This document shows, in pieces, positions 5,542 to 62,899 of a DNA stretch of 64,000 nucleotides. Below the pieces are notes generated by a model, which saw nothing but the letters and a program-made list of their open reading frames with translations, was not told the origin of the DNA and made no database searches. This DNA is from Raillietiella orientalis (taxonomy: Eukaryota). The stretch is from the NCBI GenBank assembly GCA_036172245.1, contig JAYWIR010000009.1:4960001-5024000 (forward strand). The letters are read 5' to 3'. The translations under genes and the position numbers were made by a program. Each line of letters starts with the position of its first letter. The first letter of the stretch is position 1.

Positions 5542-6375
5542 TTATGATCTGCAGGCCTTTCCCATAAATGAACATGCAAATGCAGTATTGGTTTCTGTAA
5601 GGGGTACTGAACCTTCAGTTAATTCTTCATATGACAACTCTTTAAAAACAGGGGGTCTGCATTTCTGTTTAGGATGCAATGCTACAGCAACACAATGACT
5701 ATTAGATAAAAGATGTTCTTCAAACTCCCAGTCTGAGCTCATTTGATTGTCTATGAACAAACATGTATTTGTTATTATTGAAGATGGTTCCATGGACAGG
5801 TCAAGTAAATCAAAACTCACATGTGATAAACCACCACCAATACCTCTTCCAGTTGCTTTTAAGTAGCTCTCCTTCAAAGTCCAAAGTCTATAAAAGCACT
5901 CTTTTTTTTTTTCAATAGAGATACAGTTTTGAACTATATCTATTTCCTTCTTGCTGAACTGCCGCCTCATCAGGGGCAAGAAATCAAAATAGTCTTTTTT
6001 GTCATCAAAACTCATGACATCTACGCCAACAGAAGATCCAATCTGAGCCCCAAGAACACAGTACGCACCTTGGTGACTAATATTAAAATCAAAATCTGTA
6101 TTTACATTATTTTTCAAAATGGGCTTTCCATGAATGGCACGAGAAATCTCTATTTCATTATAAGGTATTCCTAATACTTCCAGGCATGCCTTTCGTATAA
6201 GTAACCGGCCAACTATACCTGCCTTTGCATCCTGTTGATAAACAAATCTGCCTATTCTTTCTTTTTCTTCAATTTGTAAAAGAGACGAACATTTCAGCAC
6301 ATCTTCAAAAGTTGGGCACCATAGATCAACTCGAAATGCCCACCTCAAAGCATGCATATCCACTAATCCCGTCAT
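5542..6375 (-). CDS. AASDHPPT: L-aminoadipate-semialdehyde dehydrogenase-phosphopantetheinyl transferase (Sfp-type PPTase), intronless
   Basis: 277-aa ORF with Sfp/AASDHPPT motifs GRLLIRK, HGKP, FNISHQG, VGVDVM and FYRLWTLKESYLKATGRGI. AATAAA on the minus strand at 5391-5396. Confidence 0.95.
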   Translation of the reverse strand: MTGLVDMHALRWAFRVDLWCPTFEDVLKCSSLLQIEEKERIGRFVYQQDAKAGIVGRLLIRKACLEVLGIPYNEIEISRAIHGKPILKNNVNTDFDFNISHQGAYCVLGAQIGSSVGVDVMSFDDKKDYFDFLPLMRRQFSKKEIDIVQNCISIEKKKECFYRLWTLKESYLKATGRGIGGGLSHVSFDLLDLSMEPSSIITNTCLFIDNQMSSDWEFEEHLLSNSHCVAVALHPKQKCRPPVFKELSYEELTEGSVPLTETNTAFACSFMGKACRS

Positions 6376-10999: not shown

Positions 11000-11547
11000 T
11001 CTTTCGAGTCAGTAACAACAGTCCATTATGGCAAAATTCTCAGTGATCTTGAATAAACTCTTTTTGAAGTCCATGTGTGATGCTAGGAATCCTGGCTCCT
11101 GAAATGTTCAAAATTAATGAAGATAAGCCTGATGCATGTTTACGTTATCCACAGTCCACTTTTTAATGCAGCGCATCTACCATGGAATGCTTATGGATAG
11201 TGGCAAAAAACAAAGTGCCTGAAATGGCACAACAAACCAACCATTCTTCATGAATTCTTAAACTAAGATATAAAACATTAGCCAATACTTATTTTGGTGT
11301 ATACGAAAGGATTGCGCCGTTATGTTTTCCTTGTCTCTGGCGTGCGTGGCCCGCCTACCTAAGTTTTAAGTTTCCCCAAGGCCCACTAGGGGTGGGGTGA
11401 ATTTATTTTCTTTTACATTCATGCTACAATTTCGTTCATACAAGTTACACAGAAAAAATTCACTACACTTCACGATTGTTCTCTTGAAGTCTATTTCTTT
11501 GGTCTCTGAAGGTTCACTGCACTTATTCACCTGAGCGTCGTTTGAGC

Positions 11548-14500
11548 CTAGATGCTGCCTTCAATCCTTCTCAGGATGTGAGGGTAGTTCCAGGCCTGCA
11601 CTATTCCGCAGTTTCTGACGCCGATATCTTGGATAAACCCTTTCAGGATGTCCATCGGAGATACGACAGTCCTGGTGGTCTTCATCTTCCACCACCCCAC
11701 AAGAATGGCGGTGATGAAGAGGGCGATGGTCACTCTTATCATTGGGTTATATCAGGGAACCCTTCCATTTCCTTGGAACATCCCTGCCAATACCGCCATG
11801 GCCGAGTCATTGGGCAGCCCGATGACCCTTTTCAGGGTAAATCACTTGGTTTGCAATGTGGGGCAGATCAAAACATGACGTCTTGTATCGATGCCACCAC
11901 ATGCTCTGCAGATTTCTTCCCTTTTGCCTGTGAAAAACTTCATTCTGGATCCACTCAGGATGCCTCCATGGTAAAACATAAGGAGGTTATCCTGAGTGTC
12001 CGGTGGCAGATCACTCCGCCAGAGCACCGTCCCAATCGCTAGTGGATTAAATCCACTGCTGGCGTGGTGGTCGGCGGCTTCTTGGAGGGCACTGGTGTCT
12101 TGTTCCTCGACTTTTAGTCGGCGTAGGTTGTTCTTGGTTACCCTGGACCACGCGAAGTCGTTATGGTTTTTCCACACTTCGCGGGTCCTATGGGTGAAGC
12201 TGCCAGAGATCCTTTGGACGTAACGGAGCACCCTAGAATGGTGTAGGTATCGCTGCCGTCTCCATGCCTCAGTGGCTTTCAAAGTAACTCTGGACCGCTA
12301 TCGTATCCAGCTCCTCGTGTCATCTTGCACGCAGAGCATCCACGGGATAACCAGGATGGATTCCTCTCGCCAGAGTTCTTTGCTTTTCGGGATGATCTTG
12401 ATTTGTTCTTTCCTTATTAGTTGCTGTTTTCTCCGCCATGTTGGGTCGATGGTGGACCATTCGCCCACTCTGCCGAGCAGCGCAGTCATCAGGCCTCTCG
12501 GGTTGTTCAACAGCGAGTACGCTTTGTACGCTGCGTACTGCCAGTCGTCCCAGTTGGAAGACATGTCCAGGATTTGTCGCACGTCCATGATGTCCATGGC
12601 GTGTGCAGGCGACTTCATCCTGGTCCCACCTTCTTCCTTAGGGGGACATAGTGGTTTGAGGCGTACTCTCGGTCGGTATCCTCCCCAAAGGGTCTTCCTC
12701 TGAGGCTTTTCCACCTCTCTCTTGGTATCTTTGAACATTCTGTAGAAGGCCGCTCCAAAGAGTATCTTCGGAAGGAGTACTCCGTTCCGAAGATTAACCC
12801 TCTTCATATTAAAGTCCGAGCGGGTATACTTCGCTGCTTCTGCTGCTGCTTTCCCCAGGATTTCTTTCCACAGTAATTGGGATGCTGGTGCTTCGTCAAT
12901 GTGGACACCCAGGTACTTCACTTGATCCATCGTGCAGAAACCTTCCCTTGTAAGAGTGGAGAGGTCCAGGATTCCGACGGGCAAAAGCTGGCTTTTTTGG
13001 GCATTGATTCTTAAGCCCATTCCTTGTTCCATTAGATCCATGCAGAAACCTTCGCTGATCTCTCTCCCCTTTTAGGAAGGAGAAGATCATCTGCGTAGGC
13101 TAGATGGGTGAGCTTTTGTGTATCCACTGTTATTCCGTGGAGGTATTCACTTCTCTCTATGAGCTACGAGAGGGCCTGCATGTAGATGACAAACAGCATA
13201 GGACTCAGAGCATCGCCCTGGCGGACTCCGCATTCCCTTCAGATAGCTGTTGTCATTTCACCATTTATTTTGATGAGGGAATTTTGTTCTTCGAGTACCA
13301 TCTTCACGAAGTGCCGAAGTATTCCGGGAGGCCCAGTTTTCCTAGAATCTTTAGCATCATCCCGTGGTCCACCGTATCGAAAGCCTTCTCCATGTCAGTG
13401 AAGTCAGTGAAGCCCACTACCAAGTTCTCGCCGATATATCGGCTGAGTCCAATAGTAGCTTGGGCACACTTGACATTGTCTGACATGTGGCGTCCAGGCA
13501 CCGCACATGTCTGGACCGGAGAGATCAGCTTCGGCGTGACCTTGCCTAAACGGTTGGCCCAGATCTTCTCCAACCACTTGGCATCGGAGTTGAGGATCGA
13601 GATTGGCATCCATCGGGCAACCTGAGTTAGGTCACCTCCTTTCGGCAGCAATCTCATCCTACTCTTATAGAAGGATTCCGGTAATCGTCCTTCTTGCCGG
13701 ATGCAGAGCGTCAGATGGTGGAACAAACGCTGGTAGGCATGCAGGTACCGCTGATAGTGTGAGATGGGGACACTATCAGGACCCGCTGCCACATTCTTGC
13801 GAAGGTCCTTGAACGCAGCTTTCACTTCTTCTTCGGGGATTTCCTTTTCCAGCATCTTCCGATTGTTTTCGTCCATCCTTCGTTCCAGTGTTTCAGGAAG
13901 GTATCTTGATAGGACTGACACAGATGTCTGCATCGGAGTGTTCCACGTAATGCCTTTAGAAGTCTTCTGTGATGTCCTCCGACGTGTGCCTGGTGCGGCC
14001 ATCGTACTGGATACAGAAGATGTCTGTTTCCAGGTTCTCCCCTTTGACGTCTTGGAAGACGTATGGACTTTCGTACAGTTCCCAATACTTCTAGAGGGAG
14101 TGATCTTGGATGTCCAGCTACTGGTACGCTTCCTGCCTCAATTTGTTACAGAAGAGGTGGACTCGATGTTTTAGGCCATCCCAGTCGGCGACTCTCCTGA
14201 TGCTGGTCGTCTGCAGAATCGCCTCTATAACTTCTTGGTGGTAGGGTAGCGTTTCGAACCAGCCAGGCATGCTGATGAGCGCCGCCCTGGATGGCTTCTT
14301 TTGCCGAAGGTTTTCAGTCCTCAGGGAAAACCTCATCAACGGGTGGTCGGACACAGGGTTGGACGTGTCGCGAAACCTGAGAATGCGGTTCCCTATGTCG
14401 GAGCTGTAGAGGACGTGGTCGATCGGCTTGTGGCTGGCTGTTAGCCACAGCAGTCCGAACTCGTCAGACAGCCGCCGATACGCCGTCCTGCCTCTGGCGT

Positions 14501-14983
14501 TCCGGGAATAGATAATTTCATCCGGGATGTTGAAATCCCCCACGATGATAACGATGTCCTTCGGTGAGACCTTCTGTCGGTGGGCTTCATGAAGTGTCTC
14601 CGCGCACCGGTGCTTGTGTTGGTGGGGTCCGTAAACGTTCACCAGGAACAGGTGCACGTTCGCGACCAGGACAACCGTACGGAGACAATTCTCCCAGGAA
14701 CGGGGCAGAAGGTTTCCAGGATGGTGTGGACGAGCTCGTTCTTGATTGAGATCGCCACCCCCGTGGTGTGCGTCTGTCCCTCGCTGGTGAACAGTTGGAC
14801 GTTCAATCGCCTTTCCAATTCGAGGCTGATCTGCTGCCCTATCACCTGGGTTTCTTGCATGCATACAATGTCGTAGTGCACGATGGTCCGCGCAATCCTT
14901 TTTCTTCTTGCTTGGTCGGTGAGTCCATTGATGTTCCAGGAGGCGATCTTGACTCTCCTGGTGGTAGACAAGGACGAGGCCAT
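11548..14983 (-). pseudogene. Family A copy 1 ORF2 (AP endonuclease + reverse transcriptase), frameshifted
   Basis: IASWNINGL, CMQET, VGDFN, IDHV, SDH (APE); AAGPDSVP, RLLPKGGD, DMEKAFD, VRQGDALS, VKYLG (RT); CRACG..DTRRHVLICP. Spread over several frames. Confidence 0.9.
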
Positions 14984-14992
14984 CAAGAGGAT

Positions 14993-16530
14993 TTATTTCT
15001 TGCCTTTTCTTAGCTTCTTCTGTCAGGGAGACCGTTGCAGTTTTCCCGATGAAGAAGCGGGCTTCTCGCTACCGGCATCGCTCTCCGTGCCGGTGATGTC
15101 GGTGAGGTCTGTCTCCTCTGTCGAGCGCTCGGCCTTGGCGACCGTCTTGCGCGAAAGGGTCTCCAAGTTGACTATGGCGCAATGGTTCGTCTTGACCTCA
15201 AAAAGCTTGTTCTCCATCTTTTCTCACTGCGACACCTCCACCAGTTGGTTGATGTCCTCCTCGACTTCGCAGATGCGTTGCAGTAATTGCTCCTGCTGCT
15301 CTGCAGTCGGTTCCTGGCGGACTTCCTCTACCAATTTAACCACCTTCTCGGTTATTTGCAGCGTTTCCAGCGTCGCCGGAGTGGTTCATTCACCTCCATT
15401 TTTTCGCCTTCCTCTGGTTCTGCTTGTTCGGGCTTCTGGGAGGGTTCTTGCTCCTTGACGAGCAACCTCCTCTTGCTCTTCTTCTTCATTATTTCGACGA
15501 AGCCGTTTGCCGAAACTGGGGAGGCTTCCTTTACCTTTCTTGGTTTCTCCACAGGTTTTTGAGGCTTCGCCACCTCCTCTTGAACTTTCTCCCTCACTGG
15601 GGAGAGCCCACGCATCGTACGCCAGTTGGCGTACTCGGGACAGCCCACCTCGCGTGTCCCGGCGCCTTGCAAAATGCACATACCTTTGGCATATTGCAGT
15701 TCCTCACCTGGTGCCCCTGCTTTCCGCAGCGGAAACACCGAGACCTGGGGCAAGCCCTGACACGATGCCCAAAGTGTTTGCACCCAGTGCAAAACACAGG
15801 CTATTGTCTGTATCGAATGTACACCTCCTGAGAATCCCCATCGATGTGGGAGAGACCCGGAACCTGTGCCCCCTCACAAATTTTGATCTTGGCGCTCACA
15901 TCGCCAGAGAACACCTTTCCAGAGTAGTTCCGAAATTCCACTTCCAGAACCTCCCCGTACTTGGCGAGAAACGACTAGGCCGCCTGCCTGCTTGTGGTGA
16001 TGCAGGCACCACCAAGAAACACCGTTGTGCACGGCATGTCCCCGATGCCGCGCACCATCCTTCCCTGAATGTTAATTCCCCTCTTGATGAGGGCCTCCGT
16101 CAGCTGTTCACAGTCGGTGTAGACCGTGAAGAGCGCGGTGCTAGGAATAATTGCCTGCACCCTATCAAAGTTTACGTTTTCTTTATAAAGGGCCAGGTAG
16201 ACCTCCTTGATGTTATAAATTCGAATTAAACCGGTCTTGAAAGTTACCGGCTTCACATTCGGCCCTATACGAACGATGGGCTTCTCGATTTTACCTCTTT
16301 CAGGCTTTCCAAATTTTTGGACCGGTCGGCTAGTTGATGTACTCACCGCCACTGACGCGTAGGAAATCGGCCGCGCCGTCGCAGCTGCACAAGATGGCGT
16401 CGCGTCCCCCCCGACGGGGGGTCCCGTAAACCCAGCCGTCGCGCAGGCAACCACGCACACTCGCCGGACGCTACCTCCATGGGCTGGGGCGACGCCGGCC
16501 TCTCCTCCGCATCCTGCTGCATCCTTTTGG
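14993..16530 (-). pseudogene. Family A copy 1 ORF1 (gag-like, three CCHC knuckles), frameshifted
   Basis: CTGCKHFGHRVRAC, CFRCGKQGHQVRNC and CAFCKAPGHARW; homologous to copy 2 ORF1 (ISYASVAV, IKEVYLALYKE). 5' boundary approximate. Confidence 0.85.
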
Positions 16531-16961
16531 CGGGCTGGTGAACTGCCGCCGCCGCTCGGGAGGGACGCAGGTCCTCCACCGTGGACTCCCTGGCGCTGCT
16601 GGTGGTGACCAGTGTCCTCAGCTGCACTGCACTGGTGGGTGGGCGGAGTCCCTGTTAAGTGCAAAGGGGGGCGGCGAGAAGGGAGGAAGGAAGGAGCAGC
16701 GACTGACACATCTCCTTCGCACTCCCATTGCAGTTCCCTTCTCCTTTTTGATTTTCCCCAAGTCCCACAAGAAGTGGGGTAAATTTATTTTCATTTTTTT
16801 TTTAATATCCTTCACACTACAGTCACATTCATACAATACACTACTTGTTCTGTATTCACTGGAAGTCCTTGGGATTCACTGAAGTTCTGCACTTAGGGTG
16901 GGTATGCGGGTGTTTGGTCCCGAGCGTCGTCTTCAACTCTCTTAAGGATGAGTCTGTATGT

Positions 16962-19900
16962 CTAGGCTGCTCGTCTTCCACAATTTCTTATGCCGATTTC
17001 CTTCTTCAGGAGTCCTTGCAGGATCTCCATCGGAGGTGCGGCTCTCCTGGCTTTCCTCATCTTCCACCACCGCACCAGAATGGCAGTGATGAAGAGGGCA
17101 ATGGTCGTCCTCACCATGGGATTGTAACAGGGAACCTTACCATTTCCCTGAAACATCCCGGCTAGGATCTCCATCGTGGAACTGGTGGTGCGTCCAATGA
17201 TCCGTTTAAGGATCAGCCAGTCGTGGAGCAATGTGGGACACGTCAGGATGTGAAGTCTGGTATCCGTGTCTCCACATGCTGAGCAGTCTTCGTCTCCTCT
17301 TCTTCTTGTGAAGTGCTTTAGTCTGGACCTGCTCAAAATTCCTCCGTGATAGAACATCAGGAGGTTGTCCTGGCTGTCCGGCGGAAGGTCACTCCTCCAT
17401 AGGGTCGTGCCGATCGCCAACAGGTTGATCCTGTTGCTTCCGTAGCGATTGGCCGCTTCATGGAGGGCACTGGTGTCTTCATCTTGATCCTTTATCATTC
17501 TTCGGAGGTTTGTTTTGGTTACCCTGGACCACGCAAAGTCATCGTGGTTTATCCACACTTCGCGGGTCCGGTGGGTGAACCTACCTAGCATCTTCTCGAT
17601 ATACCGAAGTATACGAGCATGATGTAGGTGGCCTCCTTTTCTCCATTCCTGGATTCGTTGCAAGGTAACTCTGTGCCGCCGGTAGATCCATCCTCGGGTA
17701 TCGTCCGGGACCGGAAGCATCCAAGGGATCACGAGGATGGACTCCTGTTGCCAGAGTTCCCTGCTTCTTGGCACGATCTTGATCTTGTACTTTCGTACCA
17801 GCAGTTGTTTCCTCCTCCAGGTCGGGTCGATGGTCATCCACTCCTCTACTCGGCGTAGCAACGCAGTCATCAGACCTTTCGAGTTGTTAAGCAACATCGA
17901 GTAGGCCCTATGCGCCGCGTACGGCCAGTCGTCCCATTGTTCGGCGATATCCAGGATGTGTCGCGTGTCCATGATTGCCATGGAGTGTGCAAGCGACTTC
18001 ATTCCGGTTCCACCTTCTTCTTTGGGACGACATAGGGGTTTCAAACGAACTCTTGGGCGATATTTGCCCCATAATGTCTTCCTTTGCAGTTTTTCCAGCT
18101 CCCTCGAAGTGTCCCTTTTCACTCTCGCAAAGGCCGCCCCGAAGAGCACCTTAGGAAGGAGGACTCCATTCCAGAGGTTGGCCTTGCGTTTCATTCCAAG
18201 GTCCTGTCGGGTGTACTTCGCTGCCTCTTTCGCCGTTTTTCCCAGGGTTTCATCCCACAAAAGCTTCGACGCAAGGCCGTCGCCAATGTAGACTCCCAGG
18301 TATTTGGCTGTGTCCACCGTTCGGAATCCTCTCCCCGTGAGGACGGAGAGGTCCAGGATTCCGACGGGCAAAAGTTGGCTTTTCCTTGCATTGATCTTTA
18401 ATCCTAGTCCTTCTTCCATGAGCGTCACCACTTCCAGGAACGCACGCTGATTTCGTTCTCCTTTGATGAAGAAGAGAAGGTCATCAGCGTACGCCAGGTG
18501 GGTGAGCCGCTGGTCGTCGATCTGGATGCCTTGGAGGCGTCCACTCTTCTCGATGTACGAGGACAGCGCCTCCATGTAAATAACGAACAGCATAGGACTT
18601 AGCGAGTCGCCCTGGCGGACTCCTCGTTCCATCCTAATTGCTGTGGTTTCTTCGCCGTTGATCTTGATTCGGCAGTACTGGTTCTCGAGTACCAATCTCA
18701 CGAAGGTGCTGAAGTATTCCGGAAGGCCCAGCTTGTCCAGAATCTTCAGCAGCATCCCATGGTCGATGGAGTCGAAAGCCTTCTCCATGTCAGTGAACAC
18801 CAGCACCAGGTCCTCGCCGACGTACCGGCTGAGTCCCACGGTGGCCTGGGCACACTTGACATTGTCCAACATGTGGCGTCCGGGCACCGCACATGTTTGG
18901 ACCGGAGAGATGAGCTTCGGCATGACCTTGCCTAAGCGGTTGGACCAGATCTTCGCCAACCATTTGGCATCGGAGTTTAGGACGGAGATTGGCCTCCATT
19001 GGGCGACCTGCGTGAGGTCGCCTCCTTTCGGCAACAATCTCATCCGACTCTCGTAGAAGGACTCGGGTAGTCTTCCTTCTTCACGGATGCAGAGGGTGAG
19101 CTGATGGAACAAGAGCAGGTAGGCGTGCAGGTACCGCTGATAGTGCGTGATGGGTACACTATTAGGGCCCGCTGCCACGTCCTTCCTCAGTTGCCCAAAA
19201 GCCGTTTTCACCTCATCTTCGGAGAAATCCTCCTCCAGTTTGTCTCTCTGGAGATCGCTTGTCCTCTTCTCGAGGTAGCTCAGGAAAGTTCTCTGCATAG
19301 ACTTGCACGTGTGTTGCCGTCGGAAGTGTTCTTCGTAGTGCTGATGGGATGCTCCCACGATGTCTTCCGACGTGTGCCGTTTCTGGCCGCCGTACTGGAT
19401 GCAGAAGATGTCTGTCGCCAGATTCTTCTTTTCCAGCACGCCGACCTCCCCTTTCACATTATTGAAGACGTACCGACTCTCGTACTGATCGTAGTACTTG
19501 GAGAGGGAGCGGTCTTGGATGTTGAGCTCCTGGTACGCTTCTTGCCTCAGTCGCTTGCAAAAGTACTGCATGTTGCAGAACAGGTGAATCCGATGCTTCA
19601 ACCTGTCCCAGTCGGCGACTCTGCGGATGGTGGTGTCCCGCAGAATCTCCTCGATCACCTCCTGGTGACAGGGAAGCATCTCAAATCAGGCGGGCATGCA
19701 GATGAGCGCCGCCCTAGTGGCCTTTCGCCGTCGCGGATTTTCCGTGCGGAGGGAGAACCGAACCAAAGGGTGATCGGACAGCAGGTGAGGAATGTCGCGG
19801 AAACCCTGGATTCGGTTGTCGATCTCCACGCTATGAAGGACGTGATCGATCGGTTTGTGGCTGGCTGTTCGCCACACGAGTCCGAAGTCGTCGGACAACC

Positions 19901-20413
19901 GTCGATACGCCTCTCTTCCTCTGATGTCTTGACGTTACTTGATGTGGTCTTGAATATTCAGGTCACCCGCGACGATGACCATGTCCTTCGGTGCTACACG
20001 TTGGCGGAGTGCCTCGTGGAGAGCCTCCGCGCACCTCAATGCTTGTTCTTGTGCGGTCCGTGCACGTTCACCAGAAACAGGTGAACGTTGTCGGACCAGG
20101 ACAGTCGCATGCCGATTATCCTTCCAGCGAGTGGACAGAAGGTTTCCAGAAGGGTGTGGACGAGCTCGTTCTTGATGAGGATCGCCACACCCATGGTCTT
20201 CCTTTGTCCCTCGCTGACAAACAGTTGCCCGTTGAACCGGCGTTCCATCTCCTGGGCGTTTTGTTGCCCGAGACGGTGGGTTTCCTGTAGGCACACTACG
20301 TCTTGTCTTGCGATGGTCCGCAAGACTGTCTTCCTTTTGCCTTGGTCTGTCAATCCATTGATGTTCCAGGAGGCGATGTTTAGCCTCCTGGCGTTCGCTA
20401 GCGACGAGGACAT
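16962..20413 (-). pseudogene. Family A copy 2 ORF2 (APE-RT-CCHC); RT part open for 905 codons, endonuclease disrupted
   Basis: WNINGL..CLQETH..AGDLN..IDHV..SDH; WRPISVLNSDAK, DMEKAFDSIDH, VRQGDSLSPMLF, AYADDL, KYLG; CSACGDTDTRLHILTCP. Frameshift near 20040; stops near 19935 and 19686, the latter a TGA where copy 1 has Trp. Confidence 0.92.
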
Positions 20414-20428
20414 GAAAGGGTTCGAAGA

Positions 20429-22126
20429 CTAATGCTTCGCTTTCCTCAGCTTCTTCTGAAGGGGAGACCTTTCTCCTCTCACCGTCGAGGAAGCTGGCTT
20501 CTCACTCCCGGCATCGCTCTCCGTGCCGGTGTGGTCTGTGGACTCCCGGTCCATCTCCATTGTGCGTTCTGCCCTGGCGATCGCCTTGCGCGGAAGTGTC
20601 TGGAGGGAAACCTTCGCGCAGTACGCCGCTTTCACTTCGAAAAGCTGGTTCTCTAGCTTTTCGCGCTCTTCTTGGATCACCAGGGTGTTGATTCCCTGTT
20701 GGGTTTCATTGATGCGAGTCAGGAGTTGCTCCTGCTGCACCTCACTTTTCTCCCCCTGCACTTCTTCCACAAGCTTCACCACCTCCTCGGTGAGCTGCAC
20801 CGCCTCCTGCGATGTCGGAACGGTTTCGTTGATTTCCATCACCTCGCCTTCCGGCACACCCTGCTTCTCGCCAACCTGCTCTACTTCGGCCTTCTCGCCA
20901 ACCTGCTCGCCAACCTGCTCCTCGACCTGCGCAGCAGAGGATTCTTGCTCCTTCACGAGCATCCTCCTCTTGCCGCCCTTCCCCACCGTGGTGAAGCCGT
21001 CCGCCGAAACTGGGGCTGCCTCCTTCTCCTTCCTCTGCTTCATCGCCCTTTGAGGTTTGATTACCTCCTCCAACACCCGTGTCCTAACTGGGGATTGACC
21101 TCGCATCGTTCTGTAGTTTGCAAACTCCGGGCAGCACCACTTTGCATGCCCCGGAGACTTGCAGAACGAACACACCTCCAGCATGCTGCAGTCCCGCACC
21201 TGGTGGCCCTGCTTCCCACAGCGGAAGCACTTGGCCCTCGGGCAGACTCGCTGCCGGTGTCCAAAGGTTTTGCAGCCGTTGCAGAACACTGGCTGCGCCC
21301 TATATCGAACGGAGACTCCCATGTCGTCCCCGTCGAAGTAGATCATCCCAGGAACCTGGGCTTCCTCCTTCAACTGCATCTTCACCGTCGCCTCCCCCGA
21401 AAAGATCTTTCCCGATATATTGTGGTAGTTGCTGTCTAGTACCTCGCCGTACTGCGACAGTTTCCTCCACACAGCCCTTTGGGTGACGAACGGCCCGAGT
21501 CCGCTCAGGAATAGGGTGGTGTACGGCATTTCGCCGACGCAACACACTATCCTGCCCTGGATGTTGATCCCTTTTTCAATTAGGGATTCCCTTATACCTT
21601 CACAGTCGGTGTACACTGTGAATCCCGAGGTGTTCGGGACGATCGCCTGCAGGGGGTCAAAGTCCACTTGCTGTTTGTAGAGAGCCAGGTATACCTCTTT
21701 GATGTTGCTCATTTTTATAAGTCCAGTCTTGAACGTGACCGTCTTCACGTTCGGTCCTAGTTTAATTATGGGCTCGTCGATGTCTTGTATCGGCCCAGAC
21801 TCTGGCTTCCCGAATTTCCTCTGCGGCTGGGTGGTCGCCGTCCCAGCCGCCACCGCCGCATAGGAAAAAGCTGCCGCCGCTGCCGGTGGCCGCCCCACGG
21901 TCGCAGCCACCGCGCAAGATGGCGTCGCGTCACTAGCAACGGTGGGGCCTACGGGCCCTCCCGTCGCTCCGGCGACCGCCGTCTCAAGGGGCGCCGCCGC
22001 CGCCACCGCCACCGCCATCGTCGTCTCCACCGCTTCCATCGGAGTCGCGCCGGAAGAAACACACGATTGCCCCACCTCCATGGGCTGTGGCTTCTCCGTG
22101 GCTCCCATCCACCGCTGCTCTTGCAT
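20429..22126 (-). CDS. Family A copy 2 ORF1 nucleic-acid-binding protein (three CCHC knuckles, acidic tail)
   Basis: Uninterrupted frame (track 20429-22282; first ATG at 22126) with CNGCKTFGHRQRVC, CFRCGKQGHQVRDC and CSFCKSPGHAKWCC. Ends 15 nt before the ORF2 ATG. Confidence 0.88.
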   Translation of the reverse strand: MQEQRWMGATEKPQPMEVGQSCVSSGATPMEAVETTMAVAVAAAAPLETAVAGATGGPVGPTVASDATPSCAVAATVGRPPAAAAAFSYAAVAAGTATTQPQRKFGKPESGPIQDIDEPIIKLGPNVKTVTFKTGLIKMSNIKEVYLALYKQQVDFDPLQAIVPNTSGFTVYTDCEGIRESLIEKGINIQGRIVCCVGEMPYTTLFLSGLGPFVTQRAVWRKLSQYGEVLDSNYHNISGKIFSGEATVKMQLKEEAQVPGMIYFDGDDMGVSVRYRAQPVFCNGCKTFGHRQRVCPRAKCFRCGKQGHQVRDCSMLEVCSFCKSPGHAKWCCPEFANYRTMRGQSPVRTRVLEEVIKPQRAMKQRKEKEAAPVSADGFTTVGKGGKRRMLVKEQESSAAQVEEQVGEQVGEKAEVEQVGEKQGVPEGEVMEINETVPTSQEAVQLTEEVVKLVEEVQGEKSEVQQEQLLTRINETQQGINTLVIQEEREKLENQLFEVKAAYCAKVSLQTLPRKAIARAERTMEMDRESTDHTGTESDAGSEKPASSTVRGERSPLQKKLRKAKH

Positions 22127-22970
22127 CTTGACGGGGTGCTGCTGCACCGCCGCCAGGGAGGATCGCGAGTCCTCCACCTTGGACTCCCTTTCGCTGCTTC
22201 TGCTGCTGCAGTCACTGTGGGAAGTCCTTGGTTGCGCACTCACTGTCTTTTCACTCAGCACTTGCCCTCTCGGGACACGCAAAAACTGCCGCGGCAGTGA
22301 TGTTACTCACTGCCTTAGCGGGGTATTGGGAAAAGTTTTCAACTAGCAATAATCACGGCTCAGTCGCCTTCCTCGCCTATGATACTGCCCGTGCCCTTCT
22401 CCTTTTTGACCAAGTCCTTAAAAGCTGCGGTCAACAGCGTGGAGCTCCTACCTAAGTTTAAGCTCAGGTCTGATAAGGCGTACTTTCTTCGGCTGCCAAT
22501 GTGGTTGCTTGATAACCAAAGAGGCCAGGTATTTGGCCCATCCTGCGCCGTTTATTGACGCGAAAGGCCCGCAGCAAAGGTTCGGTGCCACAAAGCCGAA
22601 CAGCATGCCCGCCCCTCCGGTGAAATCCCAGCCCGAACCCCCAGGGGCCCGTGCACGTCGACAGTCCCCTGCAAGCCTGCCGTTCGGCTTCCGACATGTT
22701 CTTCGAGTTTCAGAGAAACCCACTTCTTGCATATCAACACATCGCATTTTTTTAAACTGTGGCTTTGATTTCGTCTACGGTGATACCTATATTTATTTTC
22801 GGAAATCGTATTTACCTGGCGATCGTTTAAACCTTCGGTGCGCTTATGCTATCCTGAAGTTCCTTTTTAACACTTTGTTTTCTAAACTATTTAACGCACC
22901 ACACAAATCAACATAAGAAGTGCTACCCTGAATTCTGATCGGGTTTGCGCCCTGTTGTGGCCATTTACAC

Positions 22971-23028
22971 GAATTTGCAAAGATACTGGTGGAATACTAC
23001 CGTATTCCATCAGTATCTTTGCGAATTC
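22971..23028. repeat. 58-nt near-perfect palindrome (27-bp arms, 4-nt spacer)
   Basis: GAATTTGCAAAGATACTGGTGGAATAC-TACC-GTATTCCATCAGTATCTTTGCGAATTC; two non-Watson-Crick positions. Confidence 0.9.
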
Positions 23029-23239: not shown

Positions 23240-23464
23240 CTGCGTTCTCAGAAGAAACTGCCCCTCGGCATTAATGGTTTGGGGTCGCCGACGAAAAAGC
23301 CGATCGTCCGCATGGCCGTCGGGCACGTGCTCATGCCTACGTGGTTTTCGGTGTCACATAAATTGGAGGAATGAACAGACCACGGAAGAACGAGTTACTT
23401 CCGTGAAAAAAAATGAAAATAAATTTACCCCACCCCTTGTGGGACTTGGGGGAAAAAAAAAAAA
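23240..23464 (+). mobile_element. Short insertion ending in the family A 3' tail plus A12 (5'-truncated LINE or partner element)
   Basis: 23405-23464 (AAAAAAATGAAAATAAATTTACCCCACCCCTTGTGGGACTTGGGGG + A12) is nearly identical to the copy 2 tail. Upstream KPIVRMAV weakly resembles the ORF2 end NPMVRTTI. 5' boundary uncertain. Confidence 0.7.
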
Positions 23465-24470: not shown

Positions 24471-27236
24471 ATGCAATATCCAGAATGTGCAAGATTGGAA
24501 GAAAGTTATGAGTTGCATTCTGTTAAGGTAGCATTCGTGCTATGCTTTCAGGATTTACACAAAGCATTTGTAGATTCAAGATCCCTATTCCTGGCTAGAA
24601 AATCCAGACTCCACAGAGACCAGAAAATTTGTTGATGCCCAGAATGCGTTAACCATTCCATATTTGGAAAGTTGTAAAGATAGAGAAGCAATCAGGAAAG
24701 TGCTTTTTGATACTTGGAATTACCCCAGATATGGCTGTCCCAGCAAGAATGGAAATCATTACTTCTATCAGCATAATACAGGGTTACAGAATCAAAGGTA
24801 ATTAAAAAATAAGTGATGTTAAAACAAGTCGTTACCTGTGTAACGTTTCAGTGCGTTGTTAATGCAAAAAACAATCACATCAGAAGCTGAAGTTCTTTTG
24901 GATCCAAATCTTTTATCTCCAGATGGAACCATTGCTTTGGTTCAAACATCTTTTTCAAAAGATGGTGAAATTCTGTCTTACTGCTTGAGTGAATCTGGTT
25001 CTGACTGGATGCAAATCCGTTTTCGTAAAGTTAGCACTGGTGAAGATTTTGATGAGGTTTTGAAGTTTGTCAAGTTTTCTCACATGACTTGGACCCATGA
25101 TAATCAAGGAATATTCTATGGGGTGTGTATATTGGATTTATTTGGCAGAAGCTAAATTCTTTGCAGTGCTACAGACCTCAGAATAAAGCAGATGGCACGG
25201 AAACAGATCCTAGTGAAAATCAAAAATTATACTACCATCGAATAGGTACTTCTCAGGAAGAGGATGTTATGGTAGCTGAGTTCCCTGAAGAACCTAAGTG
25301 GATGATGTCTGTCTTTTAATTGGAAAGCTTGGAAATGGAAAAATTCATTTTTCAGAGGGGCAGAAGTCAGTGATTGTGGAAGGTACTTATTCATCTATCC
25401 TCACAAGGAATGTCGGGATAACATGGTATTTTATTCTGACATGAGTGTCTTACCAAATGGAATAACTGGAAAAATGTCATTTTCACCTATTGTGGATAAG
25501 CTTGAAGCTAATTTTGAGGTAAAGTAACCACTTTCCTAGTAGATTTTGTAACCACTTTCTAGTATGTGACAAATGATGGCACATATTGTCTCTTCCGTAC
25601 CAATAGAAATGCTGCTAATTATCATCTAGTAAATATTGATTTATCAAGTCCAGCTGAGGAAAACTGGCAAGTTTTAGTGCCTGAACATCCAGCCAATGTT
25701 CTGAATTGGGCAGTGTGTGCATGTGAAAATAAGTTAGTTATCTGTTACATTGAGAATGTCAAGGCAAGGTTACTAGCACCAAATATAAATCTTCATACAT
25801 TCTTCTGTGCTTGTAGAATGTTCTTCAGTTGTTTGACTTGGCAACAGGAGCTTGTGTATTTACTTTTCCCCTGGAGATGGGCTCTTTATTGGGATTTTCA
25901 GGAAGACGTGAATGCAGTGAAATCTTTTATTATTTTGCTTCCTTTCTAACTCCAGGAATTATTTATCATTGTGACTTGGCCCAGAACACATTGGAAATCA
26001 AGGTGATTTGAAATTCCATAGGATCAAACTGTATGAAAGTTTTAGGTATTCAAGGAAATCAAAGTTCCAGGAGTTAATGCTTCTGATTTTGTTACCAAGC
26101 AGATTTTTTATCCTAGCAAAGATGGCACTTCTATACCCATGTTCATCATTCATCAGAAGGTACCTTTCAACTGTGAAGGAATCTGAAGTAACGTTTTCCA
26201 GAGTCTCGAATTGAATGGTCAAGCACCTTGTCTTTTGTATGGATATGGAGGCTTTAATGTTAGTGTTAAGCCTGTGTTTGCAGTGTCCCGCTTAGTATTT
26301 ATGTTGCACCTGAATGGAGTGCTGGCAATTCCTAATATCCGGGGAGGAGGGTAAGTGTCATTGGTTCGCATGAGGTGGTTTTATGATGTCTACAGAGAGT
26401 ATGGCGAGAACTGGCATAAATCTGGAAGGTTATTACAGAAGCAGAATGTCTTTGATGATTTCCAGTGTGCTGCTGAGTACCTGATTCGAGAGAGGTACAC
26501 CTCAGCTAGATTGCTTACCATTCATGGTGCCTCAAATGGAGGTTTATTAGTTGGTGCTTGCATTAACCAAAGAGCTGATCTATTTGGTTGTGCTATCATA
26601 CAAGTAGGGTTAGTACTAACTACTACAGATTCTTTACTCATGTTTGCTTTGTGCTGGCCTCACAGAGTACTAGACATGCTCAAGTTTCACAGGTTCACAA
26701 TTGGCTATAGCTGGTGTTCAGATTATGGTGACCCTGATGAGTACTCACACTTCAGCAACCTTCTGAAATATTCACCACTGCACAATGTGAGGATTCCACC
26801 TGATGAGTCACAGGTAACTGTGCATGCAGCTTGCGTCTGCTTTGCTTATAAATGTATCCACCAGTATCCTGCTGTTTTGTTGCTTACTGGAGATCATGAT
26901 GATCGTGTTGTTCCACTGCACTCCTTGAAATTTATTGCAGAGTTGCAGCATGTTTTGGGACCACATCCAGCACAGGTAACTTCAAACCCTTGTAGCAATC
27001 AGTGCATTACTGTTGGAATCTGTAGACCAATCCCTTGTTAATTCGTGTGGATATTAAAGTAGGCCATGGTGGAGGGAAACCAATGATAAAAGTAGTAAGT
27101 AGCGAAAGGAATGCACGTTTTTTGCTGTTCCTGAATTGAGTCCGGCTGTGATACAATTCCGTGTGTTTTAGATCGAGGAGACCACGGATATCCTCAGCTT
27201 CATTATTCTGACATTGAAACTAAAATTTCGCCCATA
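24471..27236 (+). CDS. PREP: Prolyl oligopeptidase (prolyl endopeptidase, S9A), 14 exons
   Basis: [85 protein letters not shown]; catalytic motifs [20 protein letters not shown] and GHGGGKP. 13 short introns; stop TAA 27234-27236. An N-terminal extension upstream of 24471 is possible. Confidence 0.96.
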
Positions 27237-44979: not shown

Positions 44980-46000
44980 GACCGTCCCATCTTAAGGACT
45001 TGTACGCTGAGGAGAGCTGCTGGGCATCCTTGCCGAGGGAGTGCAGTGGTCCCCAGTGTGCTGGAGTAGCGGCACCCTCCCCCTCAAGTGGCAGGAGTTG
45101 GCTTTGCTGGTGGAGCATGGGGGAATCCCGTGCCAAGCGTGTCTTCACCACTTCACGGGGGAACGTGGACTGTTAGAGCGCGGCAGATGAGGCAAGAAGG
45201 AGACCATCCCGCAAATGCTGTTGGACTGTGCTGCCCACTTCTCGACCTTTTGGCTAAGATTGAAGTGCCCTCCGGCCCCTTTGGGATCGCCTCGTGGCCC
45301 CCGGTGCTAAGGAATATGCGGTCCCTCCCCCTGAAGTGGCAGGAGTCGGCGTTCCTGGTGTTGCACTGGGGACTCCCCAGCAACTCCCGCCGTTCGCACT
45401 GGACGAGGGGGGCTGTGGACGCGAATTGTGTCAGGTGCGGGGAACGAGAATCCCTCCCGCACCTGCTTCTTGACTGTGTTGCCCTCCGGCCCCTGTGGTT
45501 GCGTTTCGCAACGGCCCTAGGAGCACCCGCGAACAACCCCAGAGACGTGTTGAAGCGCCTCTTTGTGCGCGACGCCCTTTCGCCTGCCGCAGCCCTTGCA
45601 GCATTCTGCTGCATACGAGGGATTGTGGCGGCTTGGAGTACCGTCACTGGTGGACCGCACGATAGGGGCATCATCTGCTCCGCCCTGAGATTCCTGAGGG
45701 GATGGTCCCATCAGGGACGTATGCGGACTGAACTTGCCGGCATCCTGGAAAGGATGTAGAGGACGACCCCAGAGGAACGTGATCCCTTCCCCAACTCCTC
45801 CCTGCTTTTGTAAATAGTGTTTTCTTTTTTTGTTTTTATTTGTTCTTTCCCCCTCTGCTGCCGAGTCGAACTCGCCGGCCTGCGCGCTGGCAACTCGGGA
45901 AGTTCAGAGTTTTTATCGAACGCTGTAAGGGCAATGGTCCTACACATGCTTGTTTGTTTTTTTACAAAAATAAATGCCCCGGCGCACCCGGGTGTGAAAG
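44980..46000 (+). mobile_element. Family B element, 3' portion with internal deletions
   Basis: LKDLYA, WPPVLRNMRSLPLKWQESAFLVLHWGLP, CVRCGERESLPHLLLDC and ELAGILERM*; hairpin with CTGCGC loop at 45874-45891; AATAAA at 45969. Confidence 0.85.
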
Positions 46001-50299: not shown

Positions 50300-53200
50300 G
50301 CCAAGAATGAGCAACCCGGGATGTTCGCTTTCCCCCGGACATGGTATTGGCGCAACGCGATGTTCTTTCTTCCAGTTCGGCTGCCCGTCGGAGCCTTAGG
50401 AATGGCAGCGCATGCCTTCTCGCAGGCGGTGTGCGCTCTCGACGTCAAAAAAGAGGAGCTTCTGGCTATGTCCATCAGAAGCGGGGGTCAGTTCGTGGAG
50501 GTCATCTGCAAGGAGGAAACTCTTGCGCAGAGACTCCTGAGAACCCATGTGCCGATGGGAGAAAAAAAATCCTAAAATGGAAAAGAACGTCGCGAAACGG
50601 AGCGAAACCGCACCGCGAAAAAACGAAAAGCTGCTGCGTAGTCGTTGAGCATATTCCCGCCATCCACGAGTGAGGGACGCTGGAACTCGCAGCTGCCACC
50701 GCTGAAACCTCCGCAGACAAAGTCAACAAGGAGGGGTGCGACGCGGCGGTGTCCGTTACCGAGCCCACGCTCGATGACGTCGCTTTCGAGCGAGCGGCCG
50801 AGGAGCTCGCTGCCTCGTTGCAGCGACCTTCGAAGGTCACCAAAAAGGCCTTGAGGCGCGCGGCTTCCGAAAAGTGGTCCGAGATCTCGGACTCCGGACA
50901 GGAAATCGGGAAAGCACCTTCCGTCGCCGCGGCACCCTCCCGGAAGACTGGATGCAAGTCCAAGAATCCCTGGAAGACCCTTCCCCCAGCCGAAGGGGTG
51001 TACATGGCTTCCGGAAGCGAGGGTGCCACGAGCGTGGGAAACTCCCGGGACCCGTCGCCCGAGAAACCCCCGCGCCCCGACTCGAAGAAAATGGAGGGGG
51101 TGGAGGCCGAACAGGTGCCCCAGGTGCCTGAGGAGGCCGAAAGCCCCATGGCCATCTCACCCGCCTCGGAAGAGGCGAGTCCCCCCACGCCTTCATCTTC
51201 CCAGCAGTAATGCCGGGAATCTCCTCCCGCCGTCGTCTGCGCATCGCCGTTTGGAACGTCAACGGCATGACGGACGCCGGCAGGAGACGAGCCATGGCCG
51301 CCCTTCTAGGATCCTTCGACCTTGCGCTGCTGCAGGAGATTCACGTTATCTCTGCAGAACAAGCGCAGGAGATCGAGCGGATCTCCGGAGGGCGGCTGTG
51401 GTATCAGTGTGGGGCACCAAAGACTTGCGGTGAACCAAGGACTCCTATTGGAGCTCTTGGAACGCCTGGGTCTCCCGGCGCAACTCCTGAAGTACTTGCG
51501 CGCATGCTGGCGCCACGCGCTAACTTGCATTTCTTTCAGCGGCTGCCACGTGTACGGTATTCCCGTGCGGCGGGGCATCGGACAGGGTGACAGTTTAAGC
51601 CCGTTGCTCTTCAGCATCTTTGAGTTGGTGCTGAGGGCGTACAGGCTGACGCTGGAGTACCTGCCTAGCTCTTGCCCGGGAACGCCTGCCGTGGCTGCCT
51701 ATGCAGATGACCTGCTTCTTCTGCTCCCCATGTCCACCCCGGCGTCCAGTGTCGAAGATTTCTTCGAACTGATTCGTAGGGGAGCGGGCGTGAATGTGAA
51801 CCGGAAGAACAGAGTGGTCGTTCCTGTAGGAGCGTCGTGGGAGGGGCAGTCCGACTGGATCCGCCTGGGGATCCCCACGGCGGGGTACTTCAATTACCTT
51901 GGCGTTCCGTTGGGCGACCTCGGCGCTGTCGAGGCGTGGTCGGACTGCCTTCATAAGGCCGAGTTGGCCGCCAGCCCGTTCATTAACGGCAAGTTCACCT
52001 TGCCGGAACGGGCGGCTATTTGGAACACCTTCGTGGCCACCCTCCTCCGACCCCTCTTGTTTGTCTTGGACCCCCTCTATGCGGCCAAAGAGCGGGCAAA
52101 ACGCCTGCTAAGGAACGCTCTCTGGGGTCCGGCGCGATCCAGGATCCGCCTGAAAGACCTCACTGCTCCACGTCGGGATGCTGGGCTTGGCATCCTGACG
52201 ATGGAGAGAATCGGACTGTAAGTGCAGTTCCGGATGCTCGCACTGTGTGCCGAGCTATGGACTTCCCCCCTGTGTGCTCCTGCGCGCATCCCCCTAAGCA
52301 GGCGTGCAGGCAGTGAAGGACTTCTTTCCTTGGTGCTTAAATGCGCCATAGGAAACAAGGATTTGGCTATCCTTTGAGGAAAATCGCCATCCTATTGGAA
52401 GCCAATGCGTGGATTTCCTGCTGCCCGATGAACCACAATGCTTGGCGGCAGGAATCCATTGATTCTTGGGCTGCATTCTTAGGAATGAGCCGTGAAGATC
52501 TTCGCCCCCTGCGTCGATTCCAACCTTGGTCACTACAAGATGTCATGCAGGACGAGGTGAAGTTTTCCTCCCTGGCCGCCACGCCCCTTGTCGAAGCACT
52601 ATCTGCCCTCGAGGTTCGAGATGACAGTAGCCAGCCGGCAAGGTGGGAGTTCTGCATCATTGCAGGAAGAACGAAACTACTCGGCGAATGGGACACGAGC
52701 GAGCTGGCGGATGCCGCCACTCCTCGTGCTACACCAAAGGGATTACTTCGGTGGCGAGAAGCTCTTGGTATTGCCCCCGAGAAACTTATAATCCCTCCCT
52801 GGTGTTTGGACGGTTCGGTGTTTCCCCTTGCATGGAAGCAAGACGTCTTGCTCTTCTTGCACTGGGGCTTGCGCTACAACGAGCGGCGCCACCGAGTTTC
52901 CGGTGGGGTGGCTTCTCCCTACTGTGCCCGGTGCGGGGCGACGGAGTCGTTCCCGCACCTTGTTATGGAGTGCGGTGCCCTGCAGGAACTCTGGCGGAGG
53001 CTTGCAGCATCTCTCCTGCTACCGGGGGACACCGCCCGAGAAGTGCTGCGACGGTTCTTCCAACCACAAGGACATTCGATGGCTGCGACGATTTCGACAG
53101 TTGGTTGTGTCCGCGCCATCTTTACGGTCCGAGACGTGCTGGAGAACACTGGTCAGCAATGTTGTGTCATCAGGAAGGCAGCCGACTTCATCAGGGCAGC

Positions 53201-59468: not shown

Positions 59469-59587
59469 AAACCAAAAACTGTGAATAAAAAAAAAAAAAA
59501 TAAAAAAAAAAAAAAAAGAAACATTTTCAAGTGGTGAACCTAAAATACACAGAAATATACAAGGTCAAGTTAGGTGAGGGTAGGTTC

Positions 59588-60240
59588 GGCACCGTGCCTT
59601 TTTATTATTTCCTTTATGCCAGGGTACCCACGGAACGGCACGCCTCGCAGCTCCTACTGCCCGAAGGAACCCCGGCCATAGGGGAGGAGGAGAAGGAAAG
59701 CCTCGACGAGCGCTCAACGACCGTCGAAATTCTCGCCGGGGTCAAAAGGCTCTAGAGTCGCAAGGAGCCAGGGTAGCACTGCCTGCCCTTGGAGTTTTTT
59801 CATTGCTCCGCCGCAGAGCTGACCTTACTGGTGCTCGAGCTGACACGGCTCATTCGAGACGAAGGCGATGTTCCCGCCTCGTTTCGGTCAGCCAGAGTGA
59901 GGCTCCTTCCGAAGGGAGGAGACCTCAGGAAACTCAACAACTGGCTTCTGATCACGATTGTGAACACGAACGCCAAGTTGCTGGCGGGACCGTGGGCTAC
60001 GCGTCTGGGACAGGTGGTCAATTCCATAATTAGCCCGGAGCAGACTTACGCTGTTCCCGAGCGAAGTATGGGGACAAACGTCTTCTTCGCAAGCACATCC
60101 TTCGCAGTGCAAAGAGAAGAAACAATGAAACGGCGAATTATCGGCAACTCCGCTTTGCGGGCGCCAGCCGGGCAGGGAGGGAACACCCGGGCGGGGAAAG
60201 GGGCCCTAGAGATCGCGGTCGATCTCCATAAGGCGTTCGA
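59588..60240 (+). mobile_element. Family B RT N-terminal fragment
   Basis: FLYARVP, LPLEFF, VRLLPKGGDLRKLNNWLLITIVNTNAKL, ISPEQTYAVP and AVDLHKAFD. Confidence 0.85.
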
Positions 60241-62880: not shown

Positions 62881-62899
62881 TACTACCCTTGGATGTATC

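Follow-up and report, generated by a model that had tools for sequence, protein, structure and literature searches.

A U4 snRNA-headed LINE nested in the 5' UTR of a sister LINE

Four described systems are closest to the locus analyzed in this study. Kojima (2015; PMC4494074) describes crocodilian LINEs that begin with a spliceosomal snRNA, namely the U1-headed Tx1-2_Crp, Tx1-2B_Crp, and Tx1-4_AMi and the U2-headed Tx1-11_Crp. The same paper notes frequent target specificity among Tx1-clade elements and the location of Xenopus Tx1L in Tx1D, two points that the preliminary description of this DNA had given correctly, and it reports Tx1 families aimed at Mariner-N4_AMi, at LTR elements, and at the 5' regions of Harbinger elements. 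Template switching is the source of chimeric retrocopies that join an snRNA to L1 (Buzdin 2002 and Garcia-Perez 2007, as cited in PMC4494074). Finally, McGurk and Barbash (2018; PMC5932611) describe R1 dimers that result from double insertion and are separated by a duplicated piece of the rDNA target.

The DNA considered here is a stretch of 64 kb from Raillietiella orientalis, referred to below as the window. Its minus strand contains two head-to-tail LINEs that appear to be of the L1/Tx1 type, a younger copy (c2) and an older, decayed copy (c1), whose coordinates are given in Table 1. Like the crocodilian elements, c2 has the build of an autonomous L1/Tx1-type LINE with spliceosomal snRNA sequence at its 5' end, and like their relatives, which prefer insertion into other transposons, it lies in a transposon; its head, however, is U4 rather than U1 or U2, and it is known here from one copy. 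With the template-switch chimeras it shares the 5' snRNA, the common orientation, and a single duplication that encloses the LINE sequence too, but the LINE part of c2 is full length, and about 55-60 nt separate the end of U4 from the start of the homology to c1. Cases of the Tx1L/Tx1D type likewise have a LINE from this broad group at a defined spot inside another mobile element; those comprise many independent insertions at one position, whereas here there is one, and the host is the 5' UTR of a sister LINE. The R1 dimers are also head-to-tail products of two insertion events whose joint carries a target duplication, but there the second copy re-uses a regenerated external target, while c2 lies inside c1 at a distance of 37 nt from the c1 5' end, and the two copies belong to different families with about 70% identity. 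U1- and U2-headed Tx1-type LINEs being already in print, it is the U4 head that the locus adds.

Table 1. Features of the nested LINE pair and of a third, fragmentary copy
Feature	Position	Strand	Remarks
Outer duplication, 5'-side copy	22447..22462	-	CTTAAACTTAGGTAGG in element orientation
First 37 nt of c1 (head of family A), severed by the c2 insertion	22410..22446	-	ends in GGACTTGG; lies between the inner and outer duplications
Inner duplication, 5'-side copy	22394..22409	-	c1 nt 38-53, TCAAAAAGGAGAAGGG
U4 snRNA-derived head of c2	22264..22393	-	RF00015 model nt 10-138
Remaining c2 5' UTR	22127..22263	-	c1 homology starts about 55-60 nt past the U4 part
c2 ORF1, open, 565 aa	20429..22126	-	three CCHC zinc knuckles; PF00098, 22.7 bits
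c2 ORF2, broken	16962..20428	-	APE endonuclease, RT, C-terminal Cys/His motif
c2 3' UTR	16752..16961	-	conserved terminal tail and A4
Inner duplication, 3'-side copy	16736..16751	-	16/16 match to 22394-22409
Rest of c1 (family A)	11371..16735	-	remaining 5' UTR, decayed ORF1 and ORF2, 3' tail with A3
Outer duplication, 3'-side copy, 17 nt	11354..11370	-	matches 22447-22462 bar one base
c3, 3'-terminal fragment of about 56 nt, family-B-like	23409..23464	+	A12 tail; unrelated surrounding DNA

Two nested duplications abut the ends of the elements, and the left copy of each adjoins the conserved 3' tail. The inner one brackets c2 alone (16752-22393) and is perfect, as had been described. The outer one brackets c1 and c2 together, again as described; one of its copies has 16 nt and the other 17 nt, the sole difference being one extra T in a T-run of the plus strand. 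In a survey of all exact 13-mers repeated within positions 11000-23000, the repeats outside the register of c1/c2 homology comprised these two duplications, four other pairs (12830/22190, 12933/13041, 17020/17164, and 18296/22525), and one local tandem (20864-20920), and only the two duplications fall at element boundaries. Since a given 16-mer is expected by simple arithmetic to recur at a given place with a probability of about 2e-10, a chance origin of the duplications is excluded. Two further origins of the pair were rejected: a misassembly would not yield matched duplications at element ends, and a segmental duplication does not account for copies that are only about 70% identical and have each their own tail and duplication.

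The older copy is about 5.4 kb long (5418 nt), with a 5' UTR of roughly 263 nt, and the younger is 5.64 kb long. Their identity amounts to 69.6% across 5100 aligned bases (3727/5338 in the global alignment), in agreement with the proposed sister relationship. Over the c2 coding span, c1 has at least nine non-triplet indels relative to c2 (ten are listed, one of which is the frameshift of c2 itself), and its matches to the c2 proteins are split into several pieces. Because of these indels, the split matches, and the indel in the duplication of c1, set against the intact ORF1 of c2, c1 is the older copy. The order of events in the preliminary description, c1 first and then c2, is thereby borne out, and so are the insertion point of c2 between nucleotides 37 and 38 of c1, its sense orientation, and the resulting tandem headed by the first 37 nt of c1.

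The pair might also have been copied as a unit, if c2 had entered c1 elsewhere and an 11-kb read-through transcript had then been retrotransposed into the present site. The outer duplication, which spans both elements, agrees with such a route, and it is only the one-base difference between its copies that dates the two events separately here. However, the transcript would have to pass the AATAAA-containing tail of c2, a LINE copy of 11 kb would be a long one, and the much stronger decay of c1 fits two ages, even if c1 could have died before the copying. We regard this route as very improbable.

The ORF2 of c2 shares the frame of ORF1, begins beyond the stop of the latter, and comprises about 1150 aa. 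It has three lesions, a frameshift near 20040-20055 and in-frame stops at 19935-19937 and 19686-19688, and its portion from the RT to the end is open for 905 aa. Both copies are dead now, c1 being heavily decayed and c2 having its ORF2 broken in three places. The N-terminal part of ORF2 matches the APE-type endonuclease family (PF03372, 43.5 bits against a cut-off of 24.5; 20039-20428, minus strand); homologs bearing PF03372 align to this region, and the motifs WNINGL, QETH, GDLN, and SDH are present in the ORF2 translation. The RT domain scores 113.5 bits with PF00078. The closest relatives of solved structure are human LINE-1 ORF2p (E from 3.7e-46 to 1.7e-45), followed by R2 proteins (2.7e-24 and weaker). 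The 120 matches listed from a set of 5.8 billion proteins share 23-34% identity and are for the most part unnamed, so that they include no near relatives. Two ORFs, A-tails (A3, A4, and A12), and duplications of 16-17 bp are further traits of the L1 group. Judged from these sequence features, c1 and c2 are consistent with L1/Tx1-type LINEs. The earlier label of a Tx1-like LINE thus stands at this level, with which the APE and RT domains, the CCHC knuckles, and the closeness to human L1 ORF2p agree, the strict Tx1 clade being defined by grouping with Tx1L, Keno, Kibi, Koshi, and Mutsu in an RT phylogeny.

The preliminary description lacked one feature of c2, whose 5' end is not an ordinary 5' UTR but a copy of U4 snRNA: its first 130 nt correspond to U4 from nucleotide 10 to the end. 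The Rfam match to RF00015 scores 76.2 bits (gathering score 46, E = 3.8e-15) and covers model positions 1-138 at 22264-22402; the first nine positions overlap the inner duplication and match poorly. Since model nucleotides 10-138 lie inside the inner duplication, U4 came in with c2. No other Rfam match was obtained in the window, even at E <= 1, so that the window holds one U4-headed copy. In a template-switch chimera, LINE sequence would be joined directly to the 3' end of the mature snRNA. The 55-60 nt that follow the U4 end at 22264 match neither U4 nor c1, and they may stem from the LINE 5' UTR or from the flank of a U4 gene. Literature searches yielded no report of a U4-headed or U4-targeting LINE.

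The insertion sites can be compared through the conserved 3' tail, AATAAATTYACCCCAC-N5-GTGGG-N-CTTGGGG followed by A3 in c1 or A4 in c2. The tail pattern has three matches in the window and none in any of 100 shuffles of it. The third match, c3, is 91% identical to the c2 tail over 57 nt and has a possible 5-nt duplication, TGAAA, whose ends are ambiguous because of A-runs. The terminal hairpins of the three tails are of ordinary stability: z is about -1.1, and 28-30 sequences in a set of 200 shuffles fold equally well. Searches for the tail motif in genome_contigs and in metagenome_contigs gave no matches. Separately, in a protein-based locus search of metagenome_contigs, one of the 27 pattern-matching stretches gave a match, of 26 residues at 50% identity, which was judged spurious.

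With the insertion point marked by a slash, the three sites are GGACTTGG/TCAAAAA for c2, AGACCTGAG/CTTAAA for c1, and TTACTTCCG/TGAAA for c3, and they have short features alone in common. We favor, with moderate confidence, a locus built by two successive ordinary events of target-primed reverse transcription together with an endonuclease preference for a short motif. Family-A c1 would have entered non-repeat DNA between two host genes, producing the 16/17-bp outer duplication; later, c2 of the sister family would have inserted in the sense orientation at nucleotides 37/38 in the c1 5' UTR, producing the perfect 16-bp duplication. Its RNA would have begun with U4 snRNA sequence, of which this copy lacks the first 9 nt. 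The nick would fall after ACYT-N2-3 and before Y-N-AAA, a consensus that was read off post hoc from three sites, one with ambiguous ends, and that resembles the junction between the element's own tail and its poly(A). The nesting, its order, and the U4 head are demonstrated; the choice of site we infer to reflect this short-motif preference, with no dedicated homing to the 5' UTRs of relatives. The nesting is a well-documented, ordinary event.

It had been proposed instead that family B targets TCAAAAAGGAGAAGGG in the 5' UTRs of family A, building head-to-tail arrays and borrowing a transcription start. The sense insertion merely 37 nt from the 5' end of c1 suits this proposal, as does the nick directly behind the family's tail motif: the 8 nt preceding the nick, GGACTTGG, are identical to the terminal motif of c2 itself and occur once in the 5418 nt of c1 and four times on both strands of the window. 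Also on record are Tx1 families with a preference for defined sites within other transposons (PMC4494074). The U4 head bears on the idea of promoter capture, because, according to that paper, snRNA genes are not known to contain an internal promoter, and a U4-headed element may therefore need an upstream start. However, any promoter in the first 37 nt of c1 is putative, c2 is itself dead and displays no benefit here, and the insertion is a single event. Target-specific LINEs of the Tx1L, Keno, or R1 type are recognized by several independent copies at one nucleotide of the same target. In the window, one of the three tail-bearing insertions, that of c2, lies in the 5' UTR of a relative, and the flanks of c1 and c3 are unrelated. 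Targeting of relatives is, in our judgment, improbable.

A second observation concerns the bases that follow the nick. The 21 nt after it (c1 nucleotides 38-58) align with U4 nucleotides 21-42 at 15 of 22 positions with one gap, and nucleotide 21 is the best of 109 possible anchors. Equal or better scores were obtained for 44 of the 127,958 window 21-mers at this anchor and for 45 of 4000 random 21-mers at any anchor, where the anchor had been picked after the match was seen. The inner target has a best score of 7 against U4, compared with 3 for the outer target and 1 for the c3 target, neither of which resembles U4; for c3, the scored 21-mer began 2 nt into the TGAAA that is presumed to be its duplication. 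Taken together, GGACTTGG before the nick and the U4-like 21 nt after it, both noticed post hoc, hint at a non-random choice of site. Either could also mean a target longer and more specific than a short motif.

These bases suggest a different origin of c2, from a lineage that normally inserts into U4 genes near nucleotides 20/21 and is cotranscribed with them, and that here hit a U4-like stretch of c1. Cotranscription with U4 would account for the U4 head, that is, for nucleotides 10-138 carried by c2; cotranscription with a target gene is a known strategy (PMC4494074), and the best anchor of the target lies exactly at nucleotide 21. On the other hand, the anchor was chosen post hoc, and the alignment without it is unremarkable: in local alignment to the U4 part of c2, 1132 of 2000 shuffles equal or exceed the score of the c1 head, and 1896 of 2000 that of the target region alone. 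The bases upstream of the nick show no resemblance to U4 nucleotides 10-20. Neither piece of the c1 head matches U4 in Rfam: at E <= 10 there were no matches at 22394-22475, and seven weak ones at 16300-16800, mostly miRNA-like (E 0.76-8) and far below gathering scores. No genuine U4 gene carrying an insertion was detected by Rfam in the window. Such an origin is possible but unlikely.

Separately, the idea that the c1 head is itself recognizably U4-derived was rejected on the same Rfam and shuffling results. The fuller picture, in which c2 is a stray from a lineage that nicks U4 genes at nucleotides 20/21, rides the U4 promoter, and has U4 as its head, is likewise doubtful. U4-like or tail-like stretches in the 5' regions of relatives would all serve as landing pads, and head-to-tail arrays would grow since the heads are themselves targets. 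The landing pad would in that case be the 21-nt U4-like site behind the GGACTTGG tail motif in the c1 5' UTR.

On the preferred reading, two ordinary insertions with a short-motif preference, the locus is a clean, datable example of a LINE entering a LINE, the structure itself being routine. Homing to U4 genes or to the heads of relatives, if true, would give sequence-specific LINEs a new class of target and would be a simple, self-building route to repeat arrays, which one locus is insufficient to establish. As a minor observation, CCAAGGACTTCC, found at 22220-22231 in the c2 5' UTR, recurs in the 3' UTR of the same element.

The locus comprises two LINE-type elements, an older, decayed copy (c1) and a younger sister copy (c2) lying within the 5' UTR of c1. 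The two copies of the inner duplication, which flanks c2, are identical at 16 of 16 positions, and those of the outer duplication, which flanks the whole pair, differ solely by one base within a homopolymer run (16 vs 17 nt). The 3'-side copy of each duplication is preceded by a conserved tail, AATAAATTYACCCCAC-N5-GTGGG-N-CTTGGGG plus A3 or A4, which matches three times in the window and never in 100 shuffles. Among all repeated exact 13-mers in 11000-23000, the inner and outer pairs are the only ones at element boundaries. A chance origin of the duplications is excluded, and the nested head-to-tail structure, with both duplications at element boundaries, was correctly read in the preliminary description. 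We consider the nesting of c2 in c1 itself highly probable, and two ordinary insertion events, c1 first and then c2 into c1, are its best explanation; that the duplications frame a c1/c2 composite copied here as a single unit is very improbable.

Features of the nested locus and other LINE fragments in the window
Feature	Position	Strand	Remark
Two LINE-type elements	11354-22462	minus	parts given in element orientation
Outer duplication, first copy, CTTAAACTTAGGTAGG	22462-22447	minus	16 nt
c1, first 37 nt	22446-22410	minus	between outer and inner duplications
Inner duplication, first copy, TCAAAAAGGAGAAGGG	22409-22394	minus	16 nt
Element c2	22393-16752	minus	5642 nt
Inner duplication, second copy	16751-16736	minus	sequence repeat of first copy
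Remainder of c1	16735-11371	minus	continues after inner duplication
Outer duplication, second copy	11370-11354	minus	one A more than first copy
Other-family LINE fragments	51475-53057, 55498-56171, 59576-60271, 45322-45564	+	RT or zf-RVT similarity
Other-family LINE fragment	61448-62905	-	RT or zf-RVT similarity

The two elements are 69.6% identical across 5100 aligned bases (3727/5338 in a global alignment). ORF1 of c2 is open and encodes 565 aa with three CCHC knuckles; ORF2 follows its stop in the same frame and encodes an APE-type endonuclease (PF03372, 43.5 bits), a reverse transcriptase (PF00078, 113.5 bits) and a C-terminal Cys/His motif. The closest solved structure to ORF2 is human LINE-1 ORF2p (E about 4e-46), with R2 proteins at E 3e-24 and weaker, and the nearest database proteins among the matches listed are 23-34% identical to c2. 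Based on these domains, the CCHC-bearing ORF1 and LINE-1 ORF2p as best relative, c1 and c2 are LINEs of the L1 group, an assignment made at group level. ORF2 of c2 carries a frameshift near 20040-20055 and in-frame stops at 19935-19937 and 19686-19688. The c1 copy is much more decayed, with at least nine non-triplet indels relative to c2 and protein matches scattered across several frames, consistent with the order given by the nested duplications. The ORF1 stop of c2 is at 20429-20431 (-) and the first ORF2 ATG five codons later, at 20414-20416 (-); the shared frame and the ATG position suggest translation of ORF2 by readthrough or re-initiation. Within ORF1, three partly overlapping copies of an 18-nt unit (CTTCTCGCCAACCTGCTC on the + strand) at 20864-20920 (-) code for a repeated EQVGEK-like stretch.

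The preliminary description proposed that the family homes to the 5' UTRs of its relatives. According to Kojima 2015 (PMC4494074), many members of the Tx1 clade are target-specific (Tx1D is the target of Tx1, U2 genes that of Keno, and microsatellites those of Kibi and Koshi), and the Tx1 families of crocodilians insert preferentially at defined positions within other transposons. Head-to-tail dimers readily result when site-preferring elements insert twice, as shown by McGurk and Barbash 2018 (PMC5932611); the second insertion there re-uses the external target, which the c1/c2 pair does not. Three insertions with the conserved tail were found in the window, one of them in a relative's 5' UTR: c2 lies in c1, c1 in non-repeat DNA, and a third (c3; 23409-23464, +), a 3'-terminal family-B-like fragment (the family of c2) of ~56 nt with an A12 tail, in unrelated DNA. 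The c3 and c2 tails are 91% identical over 57 nt. This count of one in three neither supports nor refutes homing to relatives' 5' UTRs, which we consider improbable. The tail motif had no match in metagenome or prokaryote genome collections; a protein-based locus search for further copies gave a sole match of 26 residues, rejected as spurious. The c3 fragment lies 950 bp off the 5' end of c1 on the opposite strand, with TGAAA as a possible 5-nt duplication. The three tails (16752-16800 and 11371-11419, -; 23410-23458, +) share a predicted small terminal hairpin with an outer stem CCCC...GGGG, an inner stem CAC/GTG and a variable loop; its stability is not above shuffles (z about -1.1, three tails), and its stems are invariant in the three tails, yielding no covariation evidence.

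Overlooked in the preliminary description, a minus-strand match to U4 spliceosomal RNA (Rfam) spans 22402-22264 and is the only one in the window (E 3.8e-15; 76.2 bits against a gathering score of 46; model 1-138). Model positions 1-9 overlap the inner duplication and match poorly; those from 10 to 138 make up the initial 130 nt of c2. Since U4 is inside the inner duplication, it came in with c2, whose RNA started with U4; the first 9 nt of U4 are missing from the present copy. The first ~185 nt of c1 and c2 do not align (42% identity when forced), and the two heads are unrelated; an Rfam search with both pieces of the c1 head gave no convincing match. As a candidate U4 relative the c1 head was rejected, its local alignment to the U4 of c2 being matched or beaten by 1132 of 2000 shuffles. 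The U4 head places c2 among the already known snRNA-headed L1/Tx1 LINEs. In Kojima 2015 (PMC4494074), U1 or U2 heads are described on some Tx1 families, template switching is their favoured origin, snRNA genes are said to have no reported internal promoter, and flanking-target transcription is a plausible strategy. No U4-headed or U4-targeting LINE was found in our literature search, transposon papers included.

Two clues to the choice of site, both recognised post hoc, surround the nick, that is, the c2 insertion point between c1 nt 37 and 38. The preceding 8 nt, GGACTTGG (c1 nt 30-37), are identical to the motif in which the tail of c2 itself ends (…GGGACTTGGGG-A4). Within the 5418 nt of c1 the 8-mer is unique, and with both strands counted the window has four copies (c2 tail, c3 tail, nick site and one unrelated). 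Weaker likenesses precede the remaining insertion points (AGACCTGAG for c1, TTACTTCCG for c3), and all three duplications begin Y-N-(A/T)-A-A. Together these features point to an endonuclease preferring a short motif similar to the element's own tail/poly(A) junction, and we somewhat favour two ordinary insertions whose site was most likely chosen by such a preference, not by family-specific homing. The second clue is that c1 nt 38-58, the 21 nt that follow the nick, match U4 nt 21-42, as in c2, at 15/22 positions with one gap, nt 21 being exactly the best of 109 possible anchors. Scores as good were reached at this anchor by 44 of 127,958 window 21-mers, and at any U4 anchor by 45 of 4000 random 21-mers. 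Such a likeness would be expected if a lineage inserting into U4 genes had struck a U4-like stretch in the 5' UTR of c1, an explanation we hold to be rather unlikely. A 12-mer, CCAAGGACTTCC, is present in both the 5' UTR (22220-22231, -) and the 3' UTR (16861-16872, -) of c2 and absent elsewhere in the window, against an expectation of about 0.004 per strand; it could represent a family motif, e.g., a protein-binding site. The akin AAGGACTT is at c1 nt 28-35, adjoining the nick.

The five stretches with LINE fragments of other families contain no c1/c2 tail motif and no U4 nearby; they are mostly about 26-30% identical to c2 ORF2, with one short piece at 49%. The c1/c2 pair is positioned between two gene-like ORFs. 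One, an exon-like ORF at 26355-27041 (+), contains a Peptidase_S9 (prolyl oligopeptidase) domain. The other is an uninterrupted AASDHPPT-like ORF of 277 aa (5542-6375, -; 4'-phosphopantetheinyl transferase, PF22624 and PF01648), which could be either a retrogene or a gene with a single exon. Its relatives, only 33-43% identical, come from many animal phyla, and the host is an animal.
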